Source of the DNA: Verrucomicrobiia bacterium
Lineage (GTDB): Bacteria > Verrucomicrobiota > Verrucomicrobiia > JADLBR01
Length of the DNA stretch: 64,000 nucleotides
NCBI GenBank assembly: GCA_026646655.1
Contig: JAPKHT010000001.1
Span: 73,775-137,774 of the forward strand
Direction: 5' to 3'
This document shows, piece by piece, positions 384 through 22,340 of this stretch. Positions within the stretch are counted from its first letter, which is position 1; every line of letters begins with the position of its first letter. The notes under the pieces were generated by a model, which made no database searches, was not told the origin of the DNA, and was given only the letters and a program-made list of their open reading frames with translations. The position numbers were made by a program, and so were the translations under genes.

Positions 384-1637
384 ATGGAATCTAAAAAGAA
401 AACCGAAGAGAATAGGGTGAGGCACACGAACCCATTCTTCGGTCGCCGATGGTCCCTCCGGGTTCTCGGCGCCTCGCTCCTCTTCTCCTCGGCCCTGTTG
501 CGCGCCGCCGGTCCATCGTTGGAGAAAAGCATCCTCTTCAGCGAGCGGACGGACGGTTTCACGCTCTATCGGATCCCCGGCATCGTCGTCACGGCGAAGG
601 GCACGGTGCTGGCGTACTGCGAGGCGCGGAAGTTCAGCGATGCCGACCGCGGCGAGATCGAGATCCACCTCCGCCGCAGCACGGACGGCGCCCGCACGTT
701 TTCACCCGCCAGACAAGTCGCCCACCTCGGCCCGCGCCTACCTCGCAATCCGCATGTGCCGGAGAGCAAGGAGAACAAAGACTTGGGCGGGCCGGAGGAA
801 CAGACGGTCAACAACCCCGTCGCAATCGCCGCGCGGGACGGCATCGTGCACCTCATCTATTGCGTCGAATACATGCGCGCCTTCAACGTCCGCAGCGAGG
901 ATGACGGGAAGACGTGGAGCGCCCCCGTCGAGATCACGGCGGCATTCGACGGATTCCGAGGGGATCTCGACTGGCAGGCCATCGCCACAGGGCCCGGCCA
1001 TGCCGTGGAACTGCAGAGCGGCCGCCTCTGCGTGCCCTTCTGGATGGCGACCTACGTGAAGGGGGCCCCGCTGCGAAAGGCCGTCGGCACCATCTTCAGT
1101 GACGACGGGGGCCAGACTTGGCAACGGGGCGACATCGCGGTGCCGGATGCCAGCGAACCGAACATCGCCCCGCTCCCCGATGGCGGCGTGATCCTCACCG
1201 CGCGCAACACCCATGAGCAAAGACGCCGCCTCGTCACCCGCAGCCCGGATGGCGCCACGGATTGGTCGAAGCCGGCGTTTGCGCAGGAACTGCTCGAACC
1301 GGGCTGCATGGCCGGCATCACCGCCCATCCCGGAACCGCCGCCGTCCCCGCACCGCTCCTGCTTTTCTCGAGCCCGCACACCACCGACCGCGAGCACGCC
1401 GCCCGACGCGACGTCACCATCCATCTCAGCCGCAACGATGGCAAAACCTGGCCCTTCGCCAGAACCCTCCAGCCCGGCCCGGGCGCCTACAGCGACCTCG
1501 CGGTCCTGCCCGACGGTACCGTGCTCTGCTTCTACGAGAGCGGCACCGAGAAGCCCGTAGTCCAGCGCAAGCGCGACTGGGCCTACGCGCATCTAACCCT
1601 CGCGCGTTTCAACCTCGAATGGCTCGAACAACCATGA
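384..1637 (+). CDS. BNR/Asp-box repeat exo-alpha-sialidase-like glycoside hydrolase (GH33-like), secreted
   Basis: ATG at 384 (MESKKK...) followed by hydrophobic signal region; YRIP motif (FTLYRIPGIV); five Asp-boxes S-x-D-x-G-x-T-W (STDGARTF, SEDDGKTW, SDDGGQTW, SPDGATDW, SRNDGKTW); stop overlaps next ATG (ATGA at 1634-1637). Longer ORF from 39 is probably not translated. Confidence 0.75.
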   Translation: MESKKKTEENRVRHTNPFFGRRWSLRVLGASLLFSSALLRAAGPSLEKSILFSERTDGFTLYRIPGIVVTAKGTVLAYCEARKFSDADRGEIEIHLRRSTDGARTFSPARQVAHLGPRLPRNPHVPESKENKDLGGPEEQTVNNPVAIAARDGIVHLIYCVEYMRAFNVRSEDDGKTWSAPVEITAAFDGFRGDLDWQAIATGPGHAVELQSGRLCVPFWMATYVKGAPLRKAVGTIFSDDGGQTWQRGDIAVPDASEPNIAPLPDGGVILTARNTHEQRRRLVTRSPDGATDWSKPAFAQELLEPGCMAGITAHPGTAAVPAPLLLFSSPHTTDREHAARRDVTIHLSRNDGKTWPFARTLQPGPGAYSDLAVLPDGTVLCFYESGTEKPVVQRKRDWAYAHLTLARFNLEWLEQP

Positions 1638-4600
1638 AACACACCCTCACCCTCCACATCGCCCTGCTGCTCGCGCCGCTGGCCGCACTCCACGCCGTAG
1701 AGCTTTCGCCCCCACTGGATGCCGCATCGTGGAAACCTCGCCAAGGCCTCGTCCCGGCGGACCGGTTGCCTGCGTCATTCGAGGCCCGTGATGAGGAAGG
1801 TCTCCGCTTCTCGCTTTCCGGCACGTTGGCGAAGGGGAAACAGATGCGCTGGGAACGGCCCTGGACGGCAGGCGAGCACGCACCCGGCCAGTGGTTGGTC
1901 GTCGAATATCGCGCGCGGTGGGTGAACTCGGTCGTGCTTGCCCTCCTGTCCAAAGACGCTGTCGGGAAACCGATCGCCACGACCCTGGTCTCGGCTCAGG
2001 ATCTGGTGAGCGACGGTCTATGGCATCGCTTGGTCGTGCAGCGGCCTTATCCATCGCAACCCACCGCGTTGCGCGTCCTTCTGGACAGCAATGACTCGCA
2101 CTCGTGGTTCGAGATGCGGCGGCTGGATTGGGTGGCATCGCCCGAGCTCGCCGGTCCGGCGCTCGCGGAGGATCAGCAACCGTCGCGGCACCCGGACCTC
2201 CAGCCGCTGCCTTTGACGTTCAACGACCGATACGACCTGCTGCTGCAGCGCCCCTATATGCGCGTGGAAAACGACACCGTGGTGTTGGACGGGGGAGCGT
2301 GGTTCACGCAAGATGACGTGACTCTTGAAGGCATTCCTTTTCGCGTCGAGTCGAAGCCCGGAGCCGACAACCTCGTCACGCCGCCGCCGGAGCCGAAGGA
2401 AAACAACGATCTGGCCGATCATTTCGGCATACAGGCACCCCGCCGGGTCGTGGCACCCGTCAGCCGCGACAGCCGGATCACGGTGCCGGTTCATCGCAAA
2501 GTCAGCGAAGTGTTCCTGATGCTGGCGGCGGAACTGCCGAGCCGGGAACTGCATTACTTCGGCGGCCGCAGTCCCAGCACGTTGGATACGGTGGAGGACT
2601 TCGCCGTGGAACTGGTCTATGAGAGCGGCGTCCGCGATCTGGCGTTTCCGTATTCGATCCAGGATCGCCGCCATCTGGTCCGGCGGGCGCTGGGTGTCTA
2701 TGCCGTGCCGGCTTCCGGCGAACCGCTCGCAGAAGTGGTGATCCATAACCGCAAGCTCGGCGCTCGAGTCCATCTCGCGGCGACGACAGTCAATACCGGA
2801 AGCCGACGATTGTTCCCTGCACTGTTCGAGGAACCGAAGCGATTGCCAGTGGCTCCGCAAGGACTCGACCCAGCCCTCAAGCCCTTCGTGCGTCGAGATC
2901 GAGACCACCTCACCTTAGGAAATGCCCATTACGAACTGACACTGGACGCCGAGAAACTCATGTCACCCGTCGCGCTAGCGCACCGGCGATTGAACAACGG
3001 CGTGGCACGTGTGGCGCCAGTGCCGCTTCTGGAGGTAGAAGTCGCAGGCAGGGCCATTCCCTCACAGCAATGGAAACTCGAGTTGATCCGGGAACTGCCC
3101 CTCGGGTTTGAGGTGAACTACCTCGGCACCGACCCATCCCTGCCGCTCCGTTGCACGGTGACGGCGCGAACGGATGACTCACCGGAAGCAAGGTTTACCC
3201 TGTCCATGTCCAACGCAGGTGCGCAGCCGGTCGATGCGGAGATCCGTTTTCCCGTGCTCCGCGGCTTGCAACTCGGCGAGGCGGCGGACTTGCAGTGCTT
3301 CTTTCCCCAGTATCGCAACGCGCTGAGCGGTGAACGTGCGACCTATTACGCATACGCGGGCGTTGCCTTCCCGATGCAGTTTTTCGACGCGTTCGACGAA
3401 CGCACCGGTGGCGGGGTCTGGCTGCGCACGGAGGATCTGGCGGATCGTCAACGGAACTATTTCCTGTCGAAGCAGGACGATGGCGCCAGCCTCTACGTCG
3501 AATATCCGGTGCTGACAACCAGGCTTTCATCCGGTGCGATCACCCCATTTCCCGTCACGACCCTGGGTTTTCACGCCGGAAACTGGCGGGCTGCCGTGGA
3601 CCGCTACCGCGACTGGCTCGCGACCTGGTATAGACCGTTCAAAGCGCAGGACAAACCCTGGTTGCGCGAGAGCTTCTGGCTGCTCGCCGAGATCACCGAT
3701 GGAGTGCCGGAGCCGTATTCCAAACTCCCGCCGTGGTATGACACCGAAAAGAAGAAGGTCCTGTTCCGCGACATCCTCACCGAGTGGGAACGCAAGGCGG
3801 GCCACAAACCGGACATCCTTCATCTCTGGGACTGGACGCACTACCCCACGACCATTCAGCGCTGGGGCGAATATGGCGGACGCGACTACGACAATGTGGG
3901 CGGACAACCCGCGTTCAAGGAGGCCATAGCCGATGTGCAGAATAATCTAGGCATCGCGATGTCCCTTTACGTCAACGCCACCCTTTGCACAAAAGACACA
4001 CCCACCGGCCAGCGTCTCGCGGACAAGGCCCTGCAACTGCCGGACGGCAAACCCTTCATCCGCTATCGCGACACCTACTGCATGTGTCACGCCACGCCGG
4101 AATGGATTGAGCATCAGATTCAAACCTACCAGCGGCTCGTGCGGGAGACCGGCGCGAAGATGCTCTACGTCGATCAGCAAGCCACGGTGCAGGACATTGT
4201 GAACAAGACCTTCTGCGTGTGTTTCCACCCTGGCCATGGGCATCCGGTGCCGAACCGGGTCAACGAGACCGACCACCGCTTCATCCGCGCCCTGCGCGAG
4301 GCCGTGCCCGGCGACGTCGCGCTCTATGGCGAGTTTCCCTACACCGACACGACGACGCAATACTACGACAGCGCCATCCATTATTACTTCCACAAGGGCG
4401 CAGGCAGACGGTTCAGCCCGACCTTCGACACGGAGACCAGCGACCTGACCGACGAGGTGGCGCTGAACCTCTATCGCTTTCTTTTCCCGAAGCTGATGCA
4501 CCTCGATCTGCCTCTGGGGATCACCTATAACTCATGGCATTCGCTGAAGTTCACCTTCTTCAACGGCGAGTCGATTTACGACTCGTTCTGGAACATTGAC

Positions 4601-4948
4601 GAATCACGTGGTCACGCCTTCATCGCACGCGCCTACGAACTGAAGAAGCGCTTCAAGGACTGCTTCACCAGCGAAGCGCCTGAGATGCTCGTCCCTACCG
4701 AGCGCACCTCCGTTTGCGCCAACCGCTTCCCCGGCCAAGGCCGCACAGTCTGGACGCTCTACAACGCCCGCCCGACGACCGTGCGCGGCGCTATCCTGAC
4801 GGTGCCTCATCAAGACGGTGCCATCTACCGCGACGAGTGGAACGGCAAGGAGCTGACACCCAAGATCCAGAACGGCAAAGCCATCCTGTCTCTCGAACTC
4901 GGCCCGCAATCCATCGGCTGCATCACCCAGACCCGGCAAACACCATGA
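1634..4948 (+). CDS. large secreted hypothetical protein (~1104 aa), putative glycoside hydrolase of unrecognised family
   Basis: Conserved signal peptide MKHTLTLHIALLLAPLAALHA; long open frame; ATGA overlap with upstream and downstream genes; Cys/His-rich stretch CMCHATPEW...CVCFHPGHGHP; no family recognised by eye. Confidence 0.7.
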   Translation: MKHTLTLHIALLLAPLAALHAVELSPPLDAASWKPRQGLVPADRLPASFEARDEEGLRFSLSGTLAKGKQMRWERPWTAGEHAPGQWLVVEYRARWVNSVVLALLSKDAVGKPIATTLVSAQDLVSDGLWHRLVVQRPYPSQPTALRVLLDSNDSHSWFEMRRLDWVASPELAGPALAEDQQPSRHPDLQPLPLTFNDRYDLLLQRPYMRVENDTVVLDGGAWFTQDDVTLEGIPFRVESKPGADNLVTPPPEPKENNDLADHFGIQAPRRVVAPVSRDSRITVPVHRKVSEVFLMLAAELPSRELHYFGGRSPSTLDTVEDFAVELVYESGVRDLAFPYSIQDRRHLVRRALGVYAVPASGEPLAEVVIHNRKLGARVHLAATTVNTGSRRLFPALFEEPKRLPVAPQGLDPALKPFVRRDRDHLTLGNAHYELTLDAEKLMSPVALAHRRLNNGVARVAPVPLLEVEVAGRAIPSQQWKLELIRELPLGFEVNYLGTDPSLPLRCTVTARTDDSPEARFTLSMSNAGAQPVDAEIRFPVLRGLQLGEAADLQCFFPQYRNALSGERATYYAYAGVAFPMQFFDAFDERTGGGVWLRTEDLADRQRNYFLSKQDDGASLYVEYPVLTTRLSSGAITPFPVTTLGFHAGNWRAAVDRYRDWLATWYRPFKAQDKPWLRESFWLLAEITDGVPEPYSKLPPWYDTEKKKVLFRDILTEWERKAGHKPDILHLWDWTHYPTTIQRWGEYGGRDYDNVGGQPAFKEAIADVQNNLGIAMSLYVNATLCTKDTPTGQRLADKALQLPDGKPFIRYRDTYCMCHATPEWIEHQIQTYQRLVRETGAKMLYVDQQATVQDIVNKTFCVCFHPGHGHPVPNRVNETDHRFIRALREAVPGDVALYGEFPYTDTTTQYYDSAIHYYFHKGAGRRFSPTFDTETSDLTDEVALNLYRFLFPKLMHLDLPLGITYNSWHSLKFTFFNGESIYDSFWNIDESRGHAFIARAYELKKRFKDCFTSEAPEMLVPTERTSVCANRFPGQGRTVWTLYNARPTTVRGAILTVPHQDGAIYRDEWNGKELTPKIQNGKAILSLELGPQSIGCITQTRQTP

Positions 4949-5940
4949 AACACACCCTCATCGTCCTCCTCGCCCTGCTGCTCGCACCGCTGGCAGCACA
5001 CTCTCAGCAAGCCGCTCGGGACACCGTCCGCGACCGCCTCTGGATCTTCACCGTCCATGCCGGAGGGAACAATCGGGAAAACCTGGTTGGCCCTTCGCTG
5101 GAGCATAAGCATTACATTGATGATTACGCTCCAGGCGGGTCGCGCATGACGCCAACCGAGGGTGCTTTTTGGCTGGGGGTTCCGAATCTGCTTTTGATCC
5201 GGACCGGGGACAACCCACCACTGCCCAGCGCCCAACCGGAACGGGCGAAGTCCGCTTTCGAGCAATACGCGATCTCATTCCAGCCGCTGGACCGGGTCGT
5301 GTGGTCCGTCGTTGGTGCCGGGGGCGAGGGAGGAATGAGTGAACTTCCGCCCGTCCTGGACCTCGCCAGAAAATTCCCGAATATCGGCGGCGTCTTCCTC
5401 GATGACTTTGTCCGCCCCGACAAGCGGGTGAACGGACGCATGGTCGGACGCCCCTCGCTCCAGAGAGAGGAACTGAGCCGCGCGCGCGAACAGATGAACG
5501 CCGTTGGACGACCGATGGAAATTTGGGTGACGCTTTACACCCACGAAGTAAATCCCGCGCGAACAGTGAAGTCGCCGTCCTTCAAGGACTGCAATCCGCC
5601 TTTGGCTTCATTCCTCGACCAGTTTGACGTGCTTACCCTTTGGACCTGGAACTCGGAGGAGATCCCCGAATGGGAGGCCAATCTCAGCGCGTTGGAGAAG
5701 ATGGCGCCAAAGAATGCCCGCGTTGCGATGGGCCTTTACCTCTGGGATTTCCACAACAAGAAACCCGTCCCTGAAGACCTGATGCAGCACCAGTGCGACC
5801 TCGGACTGAGATGGCTCAAGAAGGGGCGCATCACCGACATGATCTTCCTCGCCAACACCATGCTGGACGTAGAAATGCCCAGCGCCGAGTTCTCGCGCCA
5901 GTGGATCAAAAGGCACGGTGACGAGAAGTTGAACCGATAA
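4945..5940 (+). CDS. secreted hypothetical protein, paralog A of a tandem pair (unknown TIM-barrel-like family)
   Basis: Signal peptide MKHTLIVLLALLLAPLAAHSQQ; ~45% identical to the next gene (TVRD.LW.F...GGSRMTP.EGA.WLG.PNLL...G...LDDFV...LWTW); ATGA overlap with upstream gene. Confidence 0.7.
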   Translation: MKHTLIVLLALLLAPLAAHSQQAARDTVRDRLWIFTVHAGGNNRENLVGPSLEHKHYIDDYAPGGSRMTPTEGAFWLGVPNLLLIRTGDNPPLPSAQPERAKSAFEQYAISFQPLDRVVWSVVGAGGEGGMSELPPVLDLARKFPNIGGVFLDDFVRPDKRVNGRMVGRPSLQREELSRAREQMNAVGRPMEIWVTLYTHEVNPARTVKSPSFKDCNPPLASFLDQFDVLTLWTWNSEEIPEWEANLSALEKMAPKNARVAMGLYLWDFHNKKPVPEDLMQHQCDLGLRWLKKGRITDMIFLANTMLDVEMPSAEFSRQWIKRHGDEKLNR

Positions 5941-5948
5941 GGAACTCC

Positions 5949-6947
5949 ATGAAGCCCGCAGTCATCCTTCTCCTTGCCCTGCTGCTCGCGCCGCTGGCCG
6001 CGCATGCTCAACAAAACGCGCCCAAAACTGTCCGCGACAACCTCTGGCTCTTCGCCTGCCCGCCGGGGGGCGATGCCGACTATCTGGAAAACGCCGGCAT
6101 CCGCGGCGGTTCCCGCATGACACCGGTGGAGGGTGCCCATTGGCTGGGGATACCGAATCTCCTTTTTGTGACCCAGGACCACAACCGGCCCAAGGCCACG
6201 TGGACTGAGATCAAATGGAAAGCCAGGACGACCATGGAGCAGTGGGCGATTTCCTTCGAGTCGCTCAAGAAGGTCAGTTGGTCCGCCGTCGGCTCAAGCG
6301 GCAGCGGCGGGCTCAAGACCGTGCCCGACATCGTCTCGACCGCGAAATCGTATCCCAACCTCACGGGCGTTTATCTCGATGACTTCGTCAAGGATCGGAA
6401 AAAGCTGAGCGACGGAACCTTCGCCGGTCGGCCGGCGATGTCCGAGGTGGAATTGGAGGACATGCGCGCGCAGCTCGCCAAGGTCGGCCGACCGATGGAA
6501 GTCTGGACGACCATCTACGCCTACGACCTGGATCCGCAGCACCCCGAATATACCCATTGCGAACCGCCTCTGGTCGACTCGCTGAAGCACTTCGACGTCA
6601 TTGTGCTCTGGACCTGGAAGAGCGACGATCTCCGCGACCTGGAGAAGAACCTCGCGCGCATCGAGGCCGTGAAGCCCAGGGAGGCCAGGGTGGCACTGGG
6701 CATCTACCTCTGGGACTACACTGGCATCGACGAGAAGAAGAAAAACGACCCGACCTACCGCTTCGGCAAGCCCGTCCCGCTCGACCTGATGGAGCTCCAA
6801 TGCTCGCTCGGCCTGAAGTGGCTCAAAGAAGGCCGGGTCCGCGACCTCGTCGTCCTCGGCAACACCCACCTCGACATCGGCGCCCCGTCCGCCCCGTGGA
6901 TGCGCCAGTGGATCAAGAAACACGCGGAAGAACAAATGAACTGGTAG
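5949..6947 (+). CDS. secreted hypothetical protein, paralog B of the tandem pair
   Basis: Signal peptide MKPAVILLLALLLAPLAAHAQQ; alignable over full length with 4945..5940. Confidence 0.7.
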   Translation: MKPAVILLLALLLAPLAAHAQQNAPKTVRDNLWLFACPPGGDADYLENAGIRGGSRMTPVEGAHWLGIPNLLFVTQDHNRPKATWTEIKWKARTTMEQWAISFESLKKVSWSAVGSSGSGGLKTVPDIVSTAKSYPNLTGVYLDDFVKDRKKLSDGTFAGRPAMSEVELEDMRAQLAKVGRPMEVWTTIYAYDLDPQHPEYTHCEPPLVDSLKHFDVIVLWTWKSDDLRDLEKNLARIEAVKPREARVALGIYLWDYTGIDEKKKNDPTYRFGKPVPLDLMELQCSLGLKWLKEGRVRDLVVLGNTHLDIGAPSAPWMRQWIKKHAEEQMNW

Positions 6948-6956
6948 ACGAAAGCA

Positions 6957-8780
6957 ATGACCGTGAGCCGCCCCCTTCCACTCCTCGCCGCCCTGCTGCT
7001 CGCGCCGCTGGCCGCGCTGCCAGCCGCCGACCCGGACGTGGCCCCGCTATCGAAGACCAAGCAATGGAGTCTTGCCGGTCCGCTTGGCCGGACGCCACCG
7101 CGCGAGAATGAGTCCTGGCCACTGTCGGACCAGAAAAACCGGGACGGCTGGGTGAAGTTCGAACCGATGTGGGACGAGTTCGACGGCCCGGCGCTCGATA
7201 CCAACAAGTGGACCGTGGGCATGTCCTGGTGGCGTGGCCGGCAGCCGGCATGGTTCAAGCCGTCTAATGTCGCCGTGCGCGCCGGGCAATTGCACCTGAC
7301 CATGCGCAAGGAACCGGTGCCGCCGGGCATGGAAAAGCACGGTTACAAGGACTACACCTCCGCCGCCCTGCATACCCGCGCGCGTTCGAGTTACGGCTAT
7401 TACGAGATCAAAGCGCGGCCGATGAACTCCGCCGGCTCCAGTGCGTTCTGGTTCCAAAACGAGGATCCCACCACGCATCCGGATTGGGCGACGGAGATTG
7501 ATGTGTTCGAGCTGTGCGGCAAGTCGGAAACATTCGAGCGGAGATACAACATGAACCTGCACGTCTTCCGCACGCCGCACGAGAAGCGGCATTGGAGCGT
7601 CGGTGGTGAATGGGTCGCGCCGTGGCGCTTCGCAGACGATTTCCATGTCTTTGGCTTCGAGTGGGGTCGCGAGGAGTTGCGGTGGTTTGTGGATGGCGTC
7701 CTGGTCCGGACGGTGGCGAACACGCACTGGCACCAGCCGCTCCACTTGATTTTCGACAGCGAAACCATGCCGGATTGGTTCGGCATGCCGAACGATGCGG
7801 ACCTGCCTTCAACCTCCAGCATCGAATACATCCGTGCCTGGACGCATTCCACGGCCAATGTTCCAACGCGCTCGGCGTCGCCGAAAATCGCCGGCCCCTA
7901 CGTCCGCGTTTACATTCCCGGTGAGGATGTCTTTCCTGGACCGGATTCCCCGAACTTCAAGGCCGGGCAGTCCTACTCCGACTGGGTGCCAAACGATCAT
8001 GCGATTCTCAAGGGGCCAGAGGGCCGCTGGCACGCGTTTGGCATCACGCATCCGAAGCCGCCCGACTACCAACCGCCGCATTATGGCAAGGGTGTGCATG
8101 AAGCGGAATGGTTGCTGTTCCACGCTGTTGCGCCTGTGGGCACGTTGAAGCAACACCTGAAGACAGGCGCTTGGCGCGACCAGGCGAAAGTGCTCGCCCC
8201 CAGCGCGCGGCCTGGCGAAATCAAGGAGTGCCACGCGCCGTTTATCGTGCGCCGCGACGGTCCTTATCACATGATTTACGGTCCCAGCCCGCTGCGACTG
8301 GCGACTTCCGCCAACCTGCATGACTGGCAGCCGGTCGGCCCTTTGTTCGCACAGCAGGGTGGCGCGCGCGATCCCAACGTGCTGTTCCATGACGGTCACT
8401 ACATCCTCTGCTACGTCACGGGCAACGCGATTCTGGCGCGGCACTCGACCGACTTGCGAAATTGGAGCGCGGACGCAGTCGAGGTCTTTCGCATGCGGCG
8501 CGGAGGCGATCCCGAATCACCCTGCATCGTGGAGCACGGCGGCCATTTCTACCTGTTCTGGTGCCTGTGGGACGCCGCCGATGAGGTCAACGGCGCCTAC
8601 GACAATCGAACGTTCGTGTTTCGTTCCAGAAATCCGCTGGATTTCAAGACCGCGCCGTGCGTCGCCGAACTCAAAGCCCACGCGCCGGAGGTCTTTCGCG
8701 ATGAGGACGGCGACTGGTTCATCTCCAGCGTTGAATGGCCTCACCGCGGTGTCAGCATCGCGCCCCTAGCGTGGGAGTAA
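6957..8780 (+). CDS. GH16 family glycoside hydrolase fused to a C-terminal 5-bladed beta-propeller-like domain (GH43/GH117/GH32-like)
   Basis: Signal peptide MTVSRPLPLLAALLLAPLAALPA; GH16 catalytic motif E-I-D-V-F-E (ATEIDVFE) in a jelly-roll context (WVKFEPMWDEFDG...YYEIKARP); the C-terminal 300 aa carries propeller-like repeats (HAPFIVRRDGPYHMIYG, DPNVLFHDGHYILCYV, SPCIVEHGGHFYLFW). Confidence 0.8.
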   Translation: MTVSRPLPLLAALLLAPLAALPAADPDVAPLSKTKQWSLAGPLGRTPPRENESWPLSDQKNRDGWVKFEPMWDEFDGPALDTNKWTVGMSWWRGRQPAWFKPSNVAVRAGQLHLTMRKEPVPPGMEKHGYKDYTSAALHTRARSSYGYYEIKARPMNSAGSSAFWFQNEDPTTHPDWATEIDVFELCGKSETFERRYNMNLHVFRTPHEKRHWSVGGEWVAPWRFADDFHVFGFEWGREELRWFVDGVLVRTVANTHWHQPLHLIFDSETMPDWFGMPNDADLPSTSSIEYIRAWTHSTANVPTRSASPKIAGPYVRVYIPGEDVFPGPDSPNFKAGQSYSDWVPNDHAILKGPEGRWHAFGITHPKPPDYQPPHYGKGVHEAEWLLFHAVAPVGTLKQHLKTGAWRDQAKVLAPSARPGEIKECHAPFIVRRDGPYHMIYGPSPLRLATSANLHDWQPVGPLFAQQGGARDPNVLFHDGHYILCYVTGNAILARHSTDLRNWSADAVEVFRMRRGGDPESPCIVEHGGHFYLFWCLWDAADEVNGAYDNRTFVFRSRNPLDFKTAPCVAELKAHAPEVFRDEDGDWFISSVEWPHRGVSIAPLAWE

Positions 8781-8827
8781 CTCGTCATGAACAGAGCAAT
8801 CCATCACGCCTCTCTTCGATTGAATCC

Positions 8828-11404
8828 ATGAAACCCACCCTCACATTTCTCACCGCTCTGCCTCTGGCTGTCACGCTCGCTGCCGCCGCCGATTCCGACG
8901 TGCCGTTCGCGCAGATCGCGCGGCCTCAGCCGCGCGCCAGCGGCGCACCGAAAGCTTCAGACGTTTGTTTTTCGACGCGCTGGCCGCGACCGATGAATCC
9001 CTCGGACAAGTGGGATTCGTTCGAGGCCGCCCGCCACTTCCATGCGACGCGGCTGGACTGGCTCTACTTGTCAGGGAAACCGGACCGCGACAAGTCCTTC
9101 GTCGCGAAGTTCAAGGCCGCGGGGTATGTGGTCGGGGGCACGCTAAACTGCCAGCCGACGGACTCGCCGACTGCCGCGAAACGCGCGTTCACCATTGCGC
9201 GCACGGTGGACATGAAGGGCGAGCCGCTGAAGGATCCGTGGACAAGGAAATACGGCGGGCGGTTCTGTTGCCCGAACAACCCCGGCTACGCGGAGCTTCT
9301 TCTCGACCACGCCCGTTACGCGCTCGACGCCGGCGTAGACTATTTCCAGATGGACGGCGTCCAGCTCAACGACGTCATGGTGCGCTACGGCGGCTGTTTC
9401 TGCGCGCACTGCGTGAAGGGCTTTCGTGAGTATGTCGCCGTGCACTCGACGCGCGGCCAGCACACCGAGTGGGGCATCAGCGACCCGACCTCGTTCGACT
9501 ACGCGCGTTTCCTGCTCGATCGGGGCACGGCGCCAGACGCCGCCATCAGCGCGTGGAAGGGGCCGAGGGAACTGCGCGATCTGTTCCGCGCGTTCCAGAT
9601 CGAGTCGGGACTCGGCTTCCTTCGCGAGATGCACCGGGCGATTGACCGCATCGCCGGGCGCAAGCTCGCCTACTCGTGCAACGCGTCGAATGAGTTCCTG
9701 ACGGACTATTGCAAAGTCCACGACTTCGCGTTCAACGAAACCTATCCCGCAAAGGAGGGCGACCCCGCGTTCCTCTACGAGCAGCGCCTGAAACCGGCGC
9801 AGAAGCTGGGCAAGACGTTCCTGATGACATTCGTGTCGGACGACGTGCCGCACAACCGCCGCTTCATCGCGTCGGCCTACGCGCTCGGCGCCAATGTCGT
9901 CGTGCCGTGGGACGTCTTCACGGGACTGGACTCGCCGCGCTTCTTCGGAACGCCGGAGCAATTCAGCGATCTGTTCGGGTTCGTGCGGGCCAACGCCGCG
10001 CTGCTCGACGGCTACGAGGACGCGGGCGTGTTTGGTGGGGGAATCCGCGATCCGCGGTTTGCGGAGAACGAACCGCCGCTCCAGGTCTATGCCGCGTCGG
10101 AGGTGCTTGCCGCCGTCCGCGCAAGGCCGGGCCAAGCCGACGCGCCGGTGGTCATCCATCTCGTGGGCGCGAAGAACAACCAGACCGGCCCGATGCGCGT
10201 GACCTTCGATCCGCGGCGATTCTTCGGCGGACGCCCGTTGAAGTTGCGCTTCCTCGCGCCTACGCCCTACGACGCCGCCGCGCACGAGAAAGCCGAATTG
10301 TCGCGCGACTTCGCGCCGCTCACCACAGCCACGGAACTGCCCGGCGGGCGCGTCTGCGTCGCCGAATTGCCCGGAGTTGACCCGTGGGGCATTCTTGTCA
10401 TCGAACCCGCCGGCGACAAGGCGACGACTCCGTGGCAGCCCGCCGTCTGGTGCGATGAACGGAGCCGCTTTGGCGAGACCCTGCAAGTGCGGCTCGGTTG
10501 CCCGACGTCCGATACGCAGATCCGCTACACGCTCGACGGCTCCGAGCCTTCAAAGACCGCCCCACTCTACCATAAACCGTTTCAGTTCAATGGCTCGACG
10601 ACGCTCAAGGCGATAGCCTTTGGCGCGGACGGCGCGGCCAGCCCGGTGCTTTCCGCCCGATTCGAGCGTGCCGAGGCCCGTCCCCGGCTTGCGCCCGATG
10701 CCGATGCTCTCAAGGCGAATCTCAAACTGTGGCTAAGCGCCGCCACCCTCGCCACGACGCTCAAGGACGGCGCCCCCGTCTCGAAGTGGCCCGCCGTCGT
10801 GGGACCGGCCGCCACCGTTCCGGCGCTCAAACTTCTCACCGGCGCAACCCCCGCTGCCCCGACGTTTGGGGCCACGCTCATCAACGGCCGACCGGGCGTC
10901 CGGTTCGATGGCGTGGACGACCAGTTGGAGGTCGCCGGTTTCGCGAACGCCTGTCTCGCGGGTAAGCCATTTACGGTGTTCCTCGTCACGCAGTCCGACG
11001 ACACACAGTTCGGCGTCTGCGGCAACGCCGCCAACGGCTCCGGCGGCATCCCGCGCCTGTATCTGACGCGCGGCGCGTTTAACTACGACCGAATTGCCGA
11101 CTCCGTTGCCGTGGGGGCAAGCCCCGGCGTTGCGGCCGTCACCGTTTACCGGCACGACGGCGTCAGAACCGCCTCCGCGCGCAGTGGCGGACGCGACACA
11201 GGAAAGCGCGACGACCTGCCCGTGGTCAAACAATTCGGCGGCGGCAACCTCGCCATTCCCCTCTGGAGCGGCCTTACCAACCACGCCGGCAACCTCGGCG
11301 AGATCATCGCCTACGACCGCCAGTTCACCGCCGCCGAAGTCGAGGCCATCGAGGAAGACCTCGCTCAACGCTACGGCATCGCCGCCCATCCGCGCTGGCG
11401 ATGA
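8828..11404 (+). CDS. secreted multidomain protein (858 aa): N-terminal glycosidase-like region, chitobiase/beta-hexosaminidase C-terminal-like domain, LamG-like domain
   Basis: Signal peptide MKPTLTFLTALPLAVTLAAA; CHB_HEX_C-like segment (QVRLGCPTSDTQIRYTLDGSEPSKTAPLYHKPFQFNGSTTLKAIAF); C-terminal concanavalin/LamG-like segment; ends TGA inside ATGA at 11401-11404. Confidence 0.7.
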   Translation: MKPTLTFLTALPLAVTLAAAADSDVPFAQIARPQPRASGAPKASDVCFSTRWPRPMNPSDKWDSFEAARHFHATRLDWLYLSGKPDRDKSFVAKFKAAGYVVGGTLNCQPTDSPTAAKRAFTIARTVDMKGEPLKDPWTRKYGGRFCCPNNPGYAELLLDHARYALDAGVDYFQMDGVQLNDVMVRYGGCFCAHCVKGFREYVAVHSTRGQHTEWGISDPTSFDYARFLLDRGTAPDAAISAWKGPRELRDLFRAFQIESGLGFLREMHRAIDRIAGRKLAYSCNASNEFLTDYCKVHDFAFNETYPAKEGDPAFLYEQRLKPAQKLGKTFLMTFVSDDVPHNRRFIASAYALGANVVVPWDVFTGLDSPRFFGTPEQFSDLFGFVRANAALLDGYEDAGVFGGGIRDPRFAENEPPLQVYAASEVLAAVRARPGQADAPVVIHLVGAKNNQTGPMRVTFDPRRFFGGRPLKLRFLAPTPYDAAAHEKAELSRDFAPLTTATELPGGRVCVAELPGVDPWGILVIEPAGDKATTPWQPAVWCDERSRFGETLQVRLGCPTSDTQIRYTLDGSEPSKTAPLYHKPFQFNGSTTLKAIAFGADGAASPVLSARFERAEARPRLAPDADALKANLKLWLSAATLATTLKDGAPVSKWPAVVGPAATVPALKLLTGATPAAPTFGATLINGRPGVRFDGVDDQLEVAGFANACLAGKPFTVFLVTQSDDTQFGVCGNAANGSGGIPRLYLTRGAFNYDRIADSVAVGASPGVAAVTVYRHDGVRTASARSGGRDTGKRDDLPVVKQFGGGNLAIPLWSGLTNHAGNLGEIIAYDRQFTAAEVEAIEEDLAQRYGIAAHPRWR

Positions 11405-11451
11405 CAGATGGCAGGGTTCCCCTCGGCCGCCCAACAGATGACAACACTAAC

Positions 11452-12798
11452 ATGAAACCCGCCCTCGCTCTCCTCACCACCCTGCTGCTGGCCGCGCCGC
11501 TGGCCGGGCCGCATGCCGCCGATGCGCCGAAGCCCAACATCATCTACATCCTCGCGGACGATTTTGGCCTGCCCGACATCGGCTGCTATGGTTCGGTTTA
11601 CAAGACACCGCATCTCGATGCGCTGGCCGCGGGCGGCACGCGCTTCGAGTATTGTTTCGCGGCGCCGCTGTGCGCTCCGACGCGGGCGATGGGCATGTTC
11701 GGCCGCTACGGTTTTCGCACGGGCGTGACCGACAACGGCCTGGGCGCCGCCGCCACGCCGCAGGGCGAGGTGTGCATCGCCAAGGTGCTCAAGCGGGCCG
11801 GGTATGCCACGGCCGTGGCCGGGAAGTGGTCGGACTTGGAATACCTCGTCACGCCGGAGGACGCCGCGAAGTGGGGTTACGACAAGTTCATGATCTGGGG
11901 CGAGAAGTGGGAAGAAGACGGCGGACAGACCGGACGGGCACGGTATTGGGGACCGGACTACAACCACAACGGCAAGATCCTAAGCGGCGACAAAGAGACA
12001 TTCGGCCCCGACCTGCTGCACGATTTCGTCGTGGATTTCATCCGCCTCCACCAGGGGGGGCCATTCTTCATTTATTATCCCACGCCGCTGATCCATTACA
12101 AACTGCAGCGCACGCCCGACAGTGTCGGGAAGAAACCCGACCTTCACGCCGACAACATCGCCTATCTGGACAAGCTCGTTGGCAAGCTCGTCGCCGAACT
12201 CGACAGCTTGGGGCTTCGCGACAAGACGCTCATCGTGTTCGTCGGCGACAACGGCTCCACCAAAGGGGCGCATACCGTCCATGGCCGCCCGATTCACGGT
12301 AAAAAGGGAGAACTCAACGAAGGCGGCTGCCGCGTGCCCCTGATCGTCAATTGGCCCGGAACGACACCCGCCGGAAAAGTCTCCGGGGACCTGGTGAGCA
12401 TCACCGATTTCTTCCCAACCTTCACCGAGTTGGCGGGGGCCACCCTGCCTTCCGGCGTGACGATCGACGGTCACAGCTTCGCCCCGCAAGCACTGGGCCG
12501 TACCGGTCGGCCGCGCGAATGGGTCTATGTGCAGTTGCGGGGCGACTGCTACGTGCGTGACGCCCGATGGAAGCTCACCAACGCGGGAGGCTTCTTCGAC
12601 ATGAGGGACGCCCCCTGGCAGGAGATTCCTGTTTCCGCCGACACGTCCGACCCCGAAGCCAAGGCCGCCCGCGCCAGGCTGCAGACGGCACTCGACGGCA
12701 TGTTGGGGCAGGATCCCAACAAGGAACCCACGGTCAAACCAGGCACCCAGCCGGCGAGCGAGGAACCGGCCAAGAAAAGGAAAGAGAAAGCGCAATGA
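11452..12798 (+). CDS. S1-family sulfatase (arylsulfatase-like)
   Basis: Signal peptide MKPALALLTTLLLAAPLAGPHA; IIYILADDFG; formylglycine motif C-A-P-T-R (PLCAPTRA); GDNGS, EGGCRVPLIVNWPG; the ORF-track start at 11401 precedes the conserved signal-peptide ATG. Confidence 0.85.
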   Translation: MKPALALLTTLLLAAPLAGPHAADAPKPNIIYILADDFGLPDIGCYGSVYKTPHLDALAAGGTRFEYCFAAPLCAPTRAMGMFGRYGFRTGVTDNGLGAAATPQGEVCIAKVLKRAGYATAVAGKWSDLEYLVTPEDAAKWGYDKFMIWGEKWEEDGGQTGRARYWGPDYNHNGKILSGDKETFGPDLLHDFVVDFIRLHQGGPFFIYYPTPLIHYKLQRTPDSVGKKPDLHADNIAYLDKLVGKLVAELDSLGLRDKTLIVFVGDNGSTKGAHTVHGRPIHGKKGELNEGGCRVPLIVNWPGTTPAGKVSGDLVSITDFFPTFTELAGATLPSGVTIDGHSFAPQALGRTGRPREWVYVQLRGDCYVRDARWKLTNAGGFFDMRDAPWQEIPVSADTSDPEAKAARARLQTALDGMLGQDPNKEPTVKPGTQPASEEPAKKRKEKAQ

Positions 12799-14141
12799 AG
12801 CCCACCCTCACCCTCCTCGCCGCGCTGCTGCTCGCGCCGCTGGCCGCGTCGCACGCTGCGGATGCGGCAACGTCCGGGGATGAATGGCTCCGCCTGACTG
12901 CGGAGAGCCGGACGCTGCTCCAGCGCGACCCGAGTCTCCTGACGCTCGAACCGGTGCGGTTGCCATGCGGGCGGCATCTGCTCGGTGCCAACGATCATCT
13001 GGGGTGGCCGGTGGCTACGCTCTCGGGCCAGGCCATCGTGGTGGTGTTCCATCGCAAGCCCCAGCATTGGAGTGGCAAGGACGAGCCGGACGCCCACACG
13101 TCCACCGCCGTGGTCAGTCGGTCGACCGATGGTGGAGAATCGTGGTCGGAGCCGGTCGACCTGCGGCAGTTCGTGCTGACGCCTACCAAAGGTTGCCGGC
13201 TCGGCTTTGGCAACACCATCGGCACGGATGCGGGCGGTGCGGTGGTGGTGGTCACTGGCTACGGCGTGTTTCGCTCCGAGGATGAGGGCGCGAGCTGGCA
13301 GCACCTGCCGGGGGCCTTCGGCGAGGACCAGCTCAAGGGTCCAAAGACGAACAACGGTCCGAGGTTGGCGCTTCATCCGGAATACGGTCTGGTTGCACCG
13401 GGTCACAAAACGAGCGAGGGAATCGTCCCTAGGCGACGCAACCCTGACGGCACACCCTATATCGCTCCCGAGCTCTGGGTGCGATGGTCGAAGGATGGCG
13501 GGCGGACGTGGCAGGAGACGAAACAGGATTTGCCGGCATTTGCCACGGCCATCGAGCCCAGCGCGCTGTCGCATGACGGCGCCCTGTTCATCGTCGCGCG
13601 CTGCCACGGACCGGAGAGCTACGAGCCAGCGACCAAGACGTGGCGCTACGTGCAACTCTGGTCCGCCACCGGCTGGCTGCCGTTCCAGGCGGCGTTGACG
13701 GACATCCGCGCCTCCGATGTGCGCGATCGCAGTCGTGGCAATTACCACGGCCCGTGGACGCAGGACACGGTGGATTTGAGCTTCAACCCCGTGAGCCGCC
13801 GCATCGAGTGCGTCGCCACCGACCGCAATGGCGACGCTGGGGCGGGCGCGAACAACCTGCGGGACTGCCAGACTCTCAATCTCTGGAGCATCGACCCCGC
13901 AGCCTTTCGGCGTGGGGAAATCCAGTGGCGTTTCGAAGGCACGCTGATGAAAAGGAGCGGCCTGATGGCCAAGGGCGAGATCGACGGCATGCACCCGGGC
14001 GCCGCCGTGATCGACACGACCGCCGGGGTCCAGCACATCTTCATCTACGCGGGAGCGCCCGCAGGACCAGCCGGGATATTCCGTCTCACCCGGACGCTCG
14101 ATACCGACCGGCTCCGAACACCCCTGCACCAATCCCAATGA
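12795..14141 (+). CDS. BNR/Asp-box repeat protein (sialidase-like beta-propeller), secreted
   Basis: Signal peptide MKPTLTLLAALLLAPLAASHA; Asp-boxes SRSTDGGESWS, SEDEGASWQ, SKDGGRTWQ; ATGA overlaps at both ends (12795-12798, 14138-14141). Confidence 0.75.
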   Translation: MKPTLTLLAALLLAPLAASHAADAATSGDEWLRLTAESRTLLQRDPSLLTLEPVRLPCGRHLLGANDHLGWPVATLSGQAIVVVFHRKPQHWSGKDEPDAHTSTAVVSRSTDGGESWSEPVDLRQFVLTPTKGCRLGFGNTIGTDAGGAVVVVTGYGVFRSEDEGASWQHLPGAFGEDQLKGPKTNNGPRLALHPEYGLVAPGHKTSEGIVPRRRNPDGTPYIAPELWVRWSKDGGRTWQETKQDLPAFATAIEPSALSHDGALFIVARCHGPESYEPATKTWRYVQLWSATGWLPFQAALTDIRASDVRDRSRGNYHGPWTQDTVDLSFNPVSRRIECVATDRNGDAGAGANNLRDCQTLNLWSIDPAAFRRGEIQWRFEGTLMKRSGLMAKGEIDGMHPGAAVIDTTAGVQHIFIYAGAPAGPAGIFRLTRTLDTDRLRTPLHQSQ

Positions 14142-16201
14142 AACACACCCTCACCCTCCTCACCGCCCTGCTGCTCGCGCCGCTGGCCGCGCTGCGCTCC
14201 GCCGTTCCCTCGGCCGATGAGCACTCGGTCGCAAAGCGGTGGATGCAGGACAATCTGCTCGGGGAGGGCGGGGGTGAGCCATTCAGTTTCGCCGTGGGTG
14301 GAAGGCCGTCTGGCGGATTGTTCGATGGATGGAAGTTGAGCCGGGGGGAGCGCGAGTTGGGTGAGCGGCGCCGCGAACACACGCTCACGTGGGTGGATGA
14401 TGTGACGGGGTTGCACGTGCGCTGCGCCGCGGTGGCGTATGCCGACTTCCCTGTCGTGGAGTGGACCCTGTGGCTCAAGAACACCGGCCACGAAAACACG
14501 CCGGTCCTTGAAGCCATCCAAGGGCTCGACGCGGACTTCGATCGCGAGGAGGGGGGCGAGTTTGTGCTGCACGGCGTGCGTGGTGATTCCTGCCTGCCGG
14601 AGAGCTTTCGCCCGTATGCGCTCACGCTGGGGCCGGGCACGGTGAAGCGGTGTTCGCCGCCGGTCGCGGGTGAGAAGGTGTCGGGCAAATCGTCGGATGG
14701 GCCGGATGGCTGGCCTTACTTCAATCTGCAAAGGCCCGGCGGCGGCGTGATTCTTGCGGTCGGTTGGCCCGGGCAGTGGGAGGCGACGTTTGCGCGCGAT
14801 CAGGAACATGGCCTGCGCGTGAAAGCGGGCCAGCAGCTCACGCATCTCGCGCTTCGGCCGGGCGAGGAGATCCGCACGCCCTCGATCACGTTGCTGTTCT
14901 GGAAGGGCGAGGACGTGGTGCGCGCGCAAAACCTCTGGCGCTCGTGGTACGTGGCACACGTGCTGCCGCGGGTCGGCGACGAGCCACAGCCGCCCATCAC
15001 GCAGATCCAGGTAAATGGCTCGTTGGCGTCATGGCCTGGGGTACAGGCGTATCTCGACGCCGGCATCAAGCCGGACATCTGCTGGCGCGACGCGGGGGGC
15101 GCCAACACCTGGTATCCCAGCGCGGGCGGCCCATTCACCGATCCGAAAAAAATCTGGCTGAATACCGGCACGTGGCAAATCGATCCCGCGAAATACCCGC
15201 AGGGCTTCAGGCCATTCAGCGACAGGGTGCGCGCGCACGGCATGCAGTTCTTGCTGTGGTTCGAGCCCGAGCGCGTGGGCGATCCGAATTCCTGGCTGGG
15301 CAAAAACCATCCCGAGTGGCTCCTGCCCGGCAACAGCGTCGGCTCCGTGCTCAACCTGGGCGATCCCGCCGCGCTGAAATGGCTCATCGGGCACATCGAC
15401 GGCATGGTGAAATTGCAGGGACTCGACTGGTATCGAGAGGACCTGAACGGCGGGAACTACGGCACCGCATGGCGGAATCACGACGCACCCGACCGCCAGG
15501 GCATCACCGAGAACCTCCACGTGCAGGGCCACCTCGCGTTCTGGGACGAGCTGCGCCGCCGCAACCCGCATATGCGCATCGATTCTTGCGCCTCCGGCGG
15601 GCGGCGCAACGATCTCGAAACGATGCGCCGCGCGGTGCCGCTATTGCGCAGCGACTGGTCGGTGACGGCCTTCGCGAAGGAGCCATTGCAGCTCGAGGGA
15701 AATCAGGCGCAAACCTACGGACTCTCTTCATGGCTGCCGTGGCAGGGCGCGGGCGTGCCATTCTTCACGGATCGCTACGCCGTGCGCAGCTACTGCGTCA
15801 CCGGCTTTGGAATGATCTCGGCGGGGGACTGGACCAAGGACGAGGGGAAGCGCGACGGGACGATTCGCGGCTACACCGAGATCCGGCGCATCGGCCCGCT
15901 GCTGCTCGGCGACTACTACCCGCTCACGCCCTACAGCCTAGACACGACCTCGTGGATCGCGTGGCAGTTCCACCGCGCCGATTTGAACGAGGGCGTCGTG
16001 CAGGCCTTCCGCCGTCCGGAGGCAGCGAACGAAACCCTCACCGTTCGGCTGCGCGGCCTCGACCCGAAGCAGCGCTACGAGATCGAGGATCTCGACGGCG
16101 GCAAAGAAGTCCGCGCCGGAGAGGAGCTCATGCATGGCCTCGCCATCACGCTGCGCGAGAAGCCCGCCGCCGCCGTGCTTATCCTGAAAGCGATCCCGTG
16201 A
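14138..16201 (+). CDS. GH36-like alpha-galactosidase family glycoside hydrolase
   Basis: Signal peptide MKHTLTLLTALLLAPLAALRS; GH36 signatures LLWFEPERVGDPNSWLGKNHPEWLL (cf. GLWxEPEMV...HPDWVL), DWYREDLNG (KWDxN-like), IDSCASGGRRND (CxSGGGR motif), RSDW (W-x-SD). Confidence 0.72.
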   Translation: MKHTLTLLTALLLAPLAALRSAVPSADEHSVAKRWMQDNLLGEGGGEPFSFAVGGRPSGGLFDGWKLSRGERELGERRREHTLTWVDDVTGLHVRCAAVAYADFPVVEWTLWLKNTGHENTPVLEAIQGLDADFDREEGGEFVLHGVRGDSCLPESFRPYALTLGPGTVKRCSPPVAGEKVSGKSSDGPDGWPYFNLQRPGGGVILAVGWPGQWEATFARDQEHGLRVKAGQQLTHLALRPGEEIRTPSITLLFWKGEDVVRAQNLWRSWYVAHVLPRVGDEPQPPITQIQVNGSLASWPGVQAYLDAGIKPDICWRDAGGANTWYPSAGGPFTDPKKIWLNTGTWQIDPAKYPQGFRPFSDRVRAHGMQFLLWFEPERVGDPNSWLGKNHPEWLLPGNSVGSVLNLGDPAALKWLIGHIDGMVKLQGLDWYREDLNGGNYGTAWRNHDAPDRQGITENLHVQGHLAFWDELRRRNPHMRIDSCASGGRRNDLETMRRAVPLLRSDWSVTAFAKEPLQLEGNQAQTYGLSSWLPWQGAGVPFFTDRYAVRSYCVTGFGMISAGDWTKDEGKRDGTIRGYTEIRRIGPLLLGDYYPLTPYSLDTTSWIAWQFHRADLNEGVVQAFRRPEAANETLTVRLRGLDPKQRYEIEDLDGGKEVRAGEELMHGLAITLREKPAAAVLILKAIP

Positions 16202-22223: not shown

Positions 22224-22340
22224 GGTGCCTTCCATCCGCTTGGCCCGTGCCTCGTCCGCTTGGTCCTCGCCGCCCTACTGCTGCCGCCGTTGCACGCCGC
22301 GGATGCGCCGAAGCCCACAGGCCCATCACGCCGGCGGTAG
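22224..22340 (+). pseudogene. remnant of a sulfatase 5' end (signal-peptide cassette + AADAPKP), no start codon, truncated by TAG
   Basis: Frame translates ...LVLAALLLPPLHAADAPKPTGPSRRR*; the DNA gcggatgcgccgaagccca is near-identical to gccgatgcgccgaagccca at the 5' end of sulfatase 11452..12798; bounded by stops. Confidence 0.4.

Follow-up and report, generated by a model that had tools for sequence, protein, structure and literature searches.

Why do unrelated genes of one bacterium begin with the same DNA? The question is raised by a 64,000-nt stretch of a Verrucomicrobiia bacterium (contig JAPKHT010000001.1 of assembly GCA_026646655.1), which is called the window here. The window is 65.6% GC and has about 40 genes, almost all of which encode secreted enzymes: glycoside hydrolases, sulfatases and others related to them. 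Seven of these genes, between 1634 and 19510, share the N-terminal sequence MK(H/P/T)TLTLLxALLLAPLAALHA, and their DNA is nearly identical over this leader. We argue that the leader is probably a signal for Sec export combined with a translation start, found across the Planctomycetes-Verrucomicrobia-Chlamydiae (PVC) bacteria. It would be selected both as a peptide and as mRNA, and be installed again and again on new genes by recombination and transfer.

One leader on unrelated genes

The core of the leader is the 26-mer GCCCTGCTGCTCGCGCCGCTGGCCGC. It is exact at 1661, 5976, 6990 and 14165, all on the plus strand, and inexact copies lie at 4972 (plus, 2 mismatches), 12822 (plus, 1 mismatch) and 19483-19458 (minus, 2 mismatches). 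The chance expectation from 100 shuffles is none. Its offset from the start codon is 27 nt in every copy, or 33 nt when counted from the ATG at 6957. The similarity spans the ATG to about codon 21 and the flanks on both sides are unrelated. The same start codons were called independently on public contigs from this organism (proteins of 1104, 331 and 332 aa).

The first-pass annotation, which was made from the sequence alone, had claimed that nearly identical leader DNA heads non-homologous genes. This is borne out by the four exact and three inexact copies and by Pfam, which shows that the mature proteins are unrelated: DUF6259, two paralogues, GH16+GH43, BNR, GH36 and sulfatase. The tandem paralogues (331 and 332 aa) have no match in Pfam or NCBIfam. 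All copies are listed in Table 1.

A signal peptide of the Sec type

The 63-nt module ATGAAACACACCCTCACCCTCCTCACC GCCCTGCTGCTCGCGCCGCTGGCCGCGCTGCACGCC encodes MKHTLTLLTALLLAPLAALHA. It stands at the extreme N-terminus. In 41 external genes, as in the window, 9 codons separate the ATG from the core. The layout is that of a Sec signal. There is a positively charged lysine at position 2, followed by LTLLTALLLAPLAAL with a helix-breaking proline 6 residues ahead of the presumed cleavage site, which is after LHA. With A(D/E) following LHA, the alanine at -1 fits signal peptidase I (SPase I), and the leucine at -3 is allowed but atypical. Among GH36 proteins the mature part becomes conserved directly after LHA. 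Judged by its residues, the leader would act like a Sec/SPase I signal peptide with an atypical -3 residue. It lacks the features of lipoprotein (SPase II) and Tat signals, as there is no cysteine after the h-region, no RR, and the n-region is MK(H/P/T). By inspection the YSIRK, KxYKxGKxW and ESPR motifs are absent from it as well, and no curated Pfam or NCBIfam model matches this N-terminus.

The codons are shared beyond the peptide

Where the seven window leaders have identical residues they mostly have the same codon too (218/284, or 0.77). The null expectation is 0.38 +/- 0.04 when synonymous codons are resampled at the frequencies of the window, and 0.37 +/- 0.04 under a codon-pair Markov model fitted to about 93,000 PVC codons (92,652 codons from 42 pooled PVC loci). 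The highest fraction in any simulation was 0.55. The same choices are made by the 41 external leaders, which were selected only at the amino-acid level. Their codons 2-10 are almost free of G. AAA is used at K2 in 29 of 34, ACC at T9 in 20 of 21, and CTC at L5, L7 and L8 in 19/23, 26/30 and 32/35, with CTG essentially absent. At L11 and L12 it is CTG that is used (37 and 35 of 41). The expected share is about 40% at each of K2, L7, L8, L11 and L12.

Codon-context bias in the pooled PVC loci is strong. Codons ending in C are avoided before a codon starting with C and preferred before G or A. Before a C-starting codon CTC has a share of 0.18 versus 0.51 for CTG, and CCC has 0.13 versus 0.66 for CCG. 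Codons 4-10 of the leader use junctions of an NNC codon with a following C, which are disfavoured genome-wide in these lineages. The codons from 11 on (CTG CTG CTC GCG CCG CTG GCC GCG) mostly obey the context rule, and more strictly than predicted.

One can imagine that only the peptide is constrained and that the rest follows from the usual preferences of a GC-rich genome for certain codons and codon contexts. The peptide is highly conserved, and the context rule (G before C, C before G) does predict CTG, CTG, GCG, CCG and GCG at codons 11, 12, 14, 15 and 18 with P of about 0.5-0.7. The close GH36 orthologues described below, which show no extra synonymous conservation, also fit. However, codons 4, 6, 7 and 10 contradict the context rule, and non-PVC genes that encode the same ALLLAPLAA peptide use other codons. 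Sulfatases of 30-40% identity use the same codon at 0.75 of identical residues in the leader versus 0.48 in the mature part. Same-codon fractions overall are 0.71-0.83 against nulls of 0.36-0.40, simple and codon-pair alike. The external set of the codon-pair test was picked by nucleotide similarity and is biased toward the consensus; the window resampling and the 41 leaders selected by amino acids are unbiased. Since both nulls fall far below the observed identity, we reject simple codon bias and codon-pair bias as full explanations. Selection on the peptide alone is very improbable.

An open translation start

Codons 2-10 avoid G even against the codon-context preference of the lineage, and this leaves the start region almost without secondary structure. 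The canonical and derived window leaders have 0-3 Gs in codons 2-9, versus 4-11 in 21 of the 23 other window genes. The minimum free energy of the start region (-20 to +40) has a mean of -4.1 kcal/mol in the nine leader genes versus -14.9 kcal/mol in the 23 others at equal GC (p = 2e-5). When 46 leaders are compared to synonymous recodings of themselves, the natural sequence is the less structured one (-5.2 versus -8.6 kcal/mol, p = 5e-10). The leader thus provides a GC-rich genome with an open region for initiation, which plausibly matters for the starts seen here, poor in Shine-Dalgarno sites and coupled through ATGA.

An ATGA overlap of stop and start is a sign of translational coupling in operons. 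Six were verified in the window, at 1634, 4945, 11401, 12795, 14138 and 19510 (minus strand), and five of them head canonical-leader genes (5/7). Four of the six (1634, 4945, 12795 and 14138) had been noticed before, with one slip of detail: the bases before the ATG at 4945 are cacc and not aacc. Among external leaders 18 of 77 overlap a long upstream open reading frame (ORF) in this way. These overlaps are ordinary translational coupling. The ATGAAA start of the leader supplies a TGA, which helps to form them. As in other coupled operon genes there is nothing unusual about them, and the open structure should favor re-initiation. One of the two explanations offered by the first-pass annotation was a constrained export signal combined with coupling. 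This largely holds, with the addition that part of the constraint is on the mRNA, where codons 2-10 are free of G and the start is unstructured.

The open start does not hide a conserved fold. The folding z-scores of the leader are +0.3 to +1.2, so it is less structured than its shuffles, and we reject a conserved RNA hairpin on these grounds. Rfam has no match for the window or for four loci that carry the repeat element described below.

The leader is found across four phyla

One genome per GTDB species was scanned for DNA that encodes ALLLAPLAA, with any base allowed at the wobble positions. There were at least 120 matches. About half of the matches listed are N-terminal leaders, MK(H/P)TLTLLTALLLAPLAALHAA(D/E), with the start always 9 codons ahead of the core. 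Their hosts among the matches listed are metagenome-assembled genomes (MAGs) labelled as Verrucomicrobiota of several orders, as Planctomycetota (Pirellulales, Thermoguttaceae, Planctomycetales and relatives of Gemmata), as Lentisphaerae or as Kiritimatiellaeota. The other half of the matches listed belong to Proteobacteria, Actinobacteria and others. They are peptides inside proteins, or ordinary signal peptides with different flanks and codons. The external leaders have the consensus ATGAAACACACCCTCACCCTCCTCACCGCCCTGCTGCTCGCGCCGCTGGCCGCGCTGCACGCCGCCGAT. The first 57 nt of the window's GH36 leader are identical to it, and 66 of the first 69 match. The GC content of the external host loci is 57-67%.

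A profile built from the window leaders and short database proteins finds 1,486 cluster representatives at E <= 1e-3 among 1.84 billion. The proteins that bear the leader are sulfatases, GH36, ThuA, NHL/SGL, fucosidases and unknowns, and the long representatives in this census are sulfatases, ThuA, NHL/SGL and unknowns. In 8-kb chunks of the external loci runs of three to five leader-bearing genes are common. A scan of viral contigs gave 5 matches and no canonical leader.

It must be noted that perfect canonical leaders also occur on short contigs labelled Klebsiella, Actinomycetota and Rhodospirillales (L088, L089, L067). These are most likely mis-binned PVC contigs. The leader is internal in some database proteins, such as P0283 (residues 374-401 of 451), P0263 and P0285. 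Probably their starts were called wrongly, or an upstream gene was read through an ATGA junction into the leader of the next gene.

This distribution bears on a second alternative, that the identity is a local accident. Recent duplication or gene conversion could have homogenized neighboring operon leaders by ectopic recombination in this genome. All window copies are in the first ~25 kb, and they share more than 26 nt of identity, which is enough for RecA-mediated exchange. Leaders are also slightly more alike within a genome (nucleotide identity 0.762) than between genomes (0.727, permutation p = 0.015). But the same 26-mer, often about 60 nt, is in dozens of unrelated PVC MAGs. The leader at 14138 is nearly the PVC-wide consensus itself, and about 1,500 protein clusters have a leader. 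Under concerted evolution copies in one genome should be much more alike, and the excess is just 3.5 percentage points, significant but very small. Within-genome homogenization is marginal. Since the excess is so tiny, local gene conversion is not the main cause. This alternative is already largely refuted and has hardly any chance of being right. The first-pass annotation had allowed that the identity might be confined to this window, and clearly it is not, as MAGs of four phyla have the leader. It had also suggested gene conversion or cassette-like exchange of 5' ends. The local version of that idea fails, while exchange of the leader as a module is plausible but unproven.

Pristine and decayed copies

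In a set of 115 GH36 homologues divergence is much quicker in the leader than in the enzyme that follows it. Identity in the leader region is 65% where the mature parts are 90% identical and 39% where they are 70% identical. The matches to the 21-residue consensus range from 4 to 19 in a continuum of states. In a set of 231 distinct leader copies, those with more amino-acid changes from the consensus also tend to deviate from it at a larger fraction of synonymous sites (rho 0.47, p 3e-14). How alike two leaders are depends very little on the relation between their genes, be they orthologues, paralogues or unrelated, in the same genome or in different phyla. Individual copies lie along an axis from pristine to decayed.

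Two processes fit these data and they do not exclude each other. One is stabilizing selection of variable strength toward a single optimum of peptide plus mRNA. The other is repeated installation of pristine copies, through 5' recombination or gene transfer, that then decay. It seems unlikely that unrelated signal peptides converged on the same 21 residues by point mutation alone, and from this we infer that copying contributes. Although leaders decay fast within a single family, unrelated genes have pristine ones, and some form of copying of the 5' module is likely in this lineage. Hallmarks of a mobile cassette were not found in the window: the similarity is limited to the ATG through codon 21, and there is no recombinase among the proteins scanned.

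We argue that the following scenario best accounts for the leader. It would be the consensus signal peptide of the PVC superphylum, of the Sec type (SPase I), in one unit with the region where its translation starts. The consensus would be held by joint selection on the peptide, for export and cleavage, and on the mRNA, for an open start. An open start would suit initiation at sites with a weak or absent Shine-Dalgarno sequence and re-initiation at ATGA overlaps. Pristine copies would be installed repeatedly by recombination at the 5' ends of genes and then decay, and polysaccharide-degradation operons passed between PVC bacteria would spread them.

Several points weigh against this scenario. 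GH36 orthologues of 78-82% identity use the same codon at 0.62 of identical residues in the leader and 0.64 in the mature part. Comparing synonymous divergence in the two regions thus gives a split answer, with the leader more conserved in the distant sulfatases (0.75 versus 0.48) and not in the close GH36 proteins. Since there is no extra conservation in the latter, any selection at the nucleotide level must be weak or variable among genes. The effect of recoding is small once codons 14-21 are included (-16.1 versus -17.9 kcal/mol). Structure avoidance explains codons 2-13 well and codons 14-21 marginally, and context bias accounts for only part of the pattern at codons 11-18. The correlation between amino-acid and synonymous changes fits variable selection strength as well as it fits the age of copies. 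No recombination event that installed a leader is directly visible in the window. Finally, the phylum labels are taken from MAG records, and a few of these are clearly mis-binned.

In another alternative the 63 nt are themselves recognized, either by a trans-acting small RNA or RNA-binding protein that would co-regulate or localize the mRNAs of secreted proteins, or as a DNA handle for recombination by which genes would be shuffled between operons for polysaccharide degradation. Codon conservation across phyla is partly unexplained by structure avoidance and context bias, especially at codons 11-18. The sharp boundaries and fixed register of the leader speak for a tag of this kind, as do the head-to-tail operon arrays of leader-bearing genes in many genomes. 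Against it, the folding z-scores are at or above 0, there is no Rfam family, and no complementary sequence was seen in the DNA examined. Copies also decay quickly in orthologues, which is unexpected for an essential recognition site. We consider a tag of this kind improbable.

A triple-palindrome element tied to leaders elsewhere

A search with a 40-residue profile matched database proteins of 29-70 aa. Many of these short proteins are exactly 54 aa long and consist of the leader followed by ..LPGVPRFGKLRAGSFQALE..SNDWN. The DNA of these ORFs has a fixed order: the 63-nt leader, an element of about 105 nt, a conserved tail ACTGACGAATCAAATGAAAACGAAAGGAACAACC, and then the ATG of a second leader that heads a real gene. 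The element is made of three TTCCA-N5-TGGAA palindromes with a 32-nt period, so they are read in three different frames. With its tail it is about 135 nt and it lies directly upstream of leader-bearing genes in freshwater Verrucomicrobia. A metagenome scan found 56 unique copies. A leader ATG follows at 26-30 nt in 44 of 51, and a second leader precedes the element in 37 of 55, ending at nt 63-64 at a fixed distance. The upstream ORF ends at the TGA of GGAACTGA in 30 of these 37. Variation in the element shows no codon periodicity, and tandem copies exist.

We rejected the idea that the 54-aa ORFs are a family of secreted peptides because the palindromes fall in three frames and there is no codon periodicity. 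NCBIfam and Pfam have no model for them. The element acts at the level of DNA or RNA and is physically linked to copies of the leader. Its role could be that of a promoter or operator, of an attenuator that includes an upstream ORF, or of a non-autonomous element with leaders as its integration sites. It shows that leader DNA has been duplicated as such in the freshwater Verrucomicrobia lineage. A search of the window did not find the element, and it does not explain the leader copies there.

Could such an element be the vehicle that moves leaders? It would leave as a circle that holds one leader and insert itself at any other leader, bringing a ribosome-binding site and a leader to new genes. 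The regular spacing to the leaders on either side speaks for this, as do the tandem copies and the lack of codon periodicity in the element part. But besides its absence from the window, most leader-bearing genes in the sampled loci have no element, and the insertion junctions in the first leader vary. A promoter/operator or attenuator placed between two genes with leaders, of which one is now no more than a stub, could account for the arrangement equally well. The chance that this vehicle explains the leaders is small.

A broader version of these ideas is that the 63-nt leader, beyond being a well-adapted signal peptide, is a portable PVC module that is physically moved between genes and genomes. 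It would be a homology handle for recombining genes of secreted enzymes into polysaccharide-degradation operons and between them, and the palindrome element would hitch-hike by using leader copies as its attachment site. Or else the leader would mark the secretome at the RNA level. Both versions would account for codons that are common to several phyla despite the quick decay of each copy. We regard this as unlikely.

The leaders are confined to one block of the window

All canonical and derived leaders lie within the first ~25 kb, on nine of the first twelve genes, with further copies at 22245 and 23127. None of the ~25 signal-peptide genes beyond ~25 kb has a leader, though five of them are also sulfatases. 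The probability of such clustering by chance is 1.8e-6. The composition shifts at the same place. Positions 1-25000 have a GC content of 60-66%, a GC content at third codon positions (GC3) of 0.74-0.82, a C-rich coding strand and more AAA and CAT codons. Positions 25000-64000 have 64-69% GC, GC3 of 0.81-0.89 and a G-rich coding strand. The shift in composition together with the confinement of the leaders suggests a horizontally acquired operon block. This block (~1-25 kb) was probably acquired as a unit from another PVC bacterium. Such an acquisition would fit a shared pool of leader-bearing operons.

The GH36 gene (14138-16201) has homologues labelled Thermoguttaceae, a family of Planctomycetota (P0183 and P0211). 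They are 72% identical to it, which is as close as many verrucomicrobial ones. The labels suggest transfer across phyla, or mis-binning.

At the edge of the block the leader remnant at 22245-22313 is followed by AADAPK, a typical start of a mature sulfatase. The adjoining minus-strand ORF of 177 aa (22326-22859) has no Pfam match. The remnant may come from a leader-bearing gene that was disrupted at the block boundary. The two tandem paralogues (4945-5940 and 5949-6947) have the mature N-terminus ..TVRD(R/N)LW(I/L)F.., which is also found in the database fragments P0039 and P0047. They therefore belong to a conserved uncharacterised secreted family of these operons.

Table 1. Leader copies of the window and loci of the palindrome element
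Feature	Position	Strand	Gene and context
Canonical leader MKHTLTLHIALLLAPLAALHA	1634..1696	+	1104-aa DUF6259 protein; ATGA 1634-1637, ATG overlaps TGA of upstream BNR gene
Leader MKHTLIVLLALLLAPLAAHSQ	4945..5007	+	331-aa unknown paralogue A; ATGA overlap 4945-4948
Leader MKPAVILLLALLLAPLAAHAQ	5949..6011	+	332-aa unknown paralogue B; preceded by 8-nt spacer with AAGGAA
Leader MTVSRPLPLLAALLLAPLAALPA, different n-region	6957..7025	+	GH16+GH43 protein; 26-mer core exact
Derived leader MKPTLTFLTALPLAVTLAAAAD	8828..8893	+	Fn3-associated/CHB_HEX_C protein; first 27 nt canonical and G-free, h-region diverged
Derived leader MKPALALLTTLLLAAPLAGPHAA, one-codon insertion	11452..11520	+	Sulfatase; alternative ATG 11401 overlaps upstream stop (ATGA)
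Canonical leader MKPTLTLLAALLLAPLAASHA	12795..12857	+	BNR protein; ATGA overlap 12795-12798
Canonical leader MKHTLTLLTALLLAPLAALRS	14138..14200	+	GH36 alpha-galactosidase; ATGA overlap 14138-14141
Canonical leader MKTTLTLLTALLIAPLAALHA	19448..19510	-	Sulfatase; ATGA overlap with upstream minus-strand gene 19507-19510
Leader remnant (..RLVLAALLLPPLHAADAPK), no intact ORF	22245..22313	+	Beside unrelated minus-strand 177-aa ORF; edge of leader-bearing block
Decayed leader MKTTRLILIAALLAPLAEPGAAE	23127..23195	+	Six-hairpin glycosidase-like protein
Palindrome element	L132:5001-5260; L138:4001-4260; L140:372-570; L113:1640-1790, 3630-3800; L148-L238		Upstream of leader-bearing genes in freshwater Verrucomicrobia; L148-L238 are metagenome matches

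Comparison with known systems

Lineage-specific motifs in signal peptides are known from YSIRK-G/S (TIGR01168) and KxYKxGKxW (TIGR03715) in Firmicutes and from the ESPR of autotransporters. Their proposed role is to direct proteins to a sub-route of export or to set its kinetics. The PVC leader resembles them in being a lineage-restricted sequence inside generic Sec signals on many unrelated exported proteins. Unlike these short n-region motifs, it is near-invariant over 21 residues, including the h-region, the cleavage region and the codons. We know of no dedicated export route for it.

Leaders conserved at the DNA level are known from the signal sequences of conotoxin superfamilies and from lipoprotein families of Mycoplasma and Borrelia. 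There, as here, the signal-coding region is far more conserved than the mature region, synonymous sites included. Those families are paralogues, often with shared 5' UTRs and recombination within the genome, whereas the mature proteins behind the PVC leader are non-homologous. The PVC similarity also starts exactly at the ATG, and its homogenization within genomes is marginal.

Zalucki et al. reportedly found a bias toward AAA for lysine at codon 2 of secretory genes. Reduced mRNA structure near the translation start is a known general trend that is reached through synonymous choices (Gu, Zhou & Wilke 2010, PMC2816680). The leader is in line with both, as it is depleted of G, prefers AAA and has a nearly unstructured start. 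The general trend involves different sequences in each gene, whereas here unrelated genes in several phyla have one 27-nt solution in common. Other genes for secreted proteins in the window do not have the depletion of G at their start. To our knowledge the reuse of one specific start-region solution by unrelated genes has no precedent.

We did not find a published description of the leader in the literature searched, which is no proof that it is unpublished. A paper on PVC signal peptides (PMC4452313) deals with generic signal peptides only. The leader has probably been seen informally by people inspecting PVC proteins.

Implications for PVC bacteria

In textbooks signal peptides are the standard example of sequences in which nothing but the physical properties is conserved. 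In this case a whole peptide, largely with its codons, is common to roughly 1,500 or more unrelated protein clusters in four phyla. Those phyla dominate the degradation of sulfated polysaccharides. If our scenario is true, PVC bacteria own an optimized unit that combines translation start and export, and this could be used as a secretion tag and for calling gene starts. It would also mean that signal peptides can act as exchangeable modules that are installed and then decay, a mode that is hardly documented in bacteria. The leader would mark horizontally exchanged operons for carbohydrate degradation, as the compositional block of the window suggests, and it would lead to a repeat element, as yet undescribed, with which it is physically linked.

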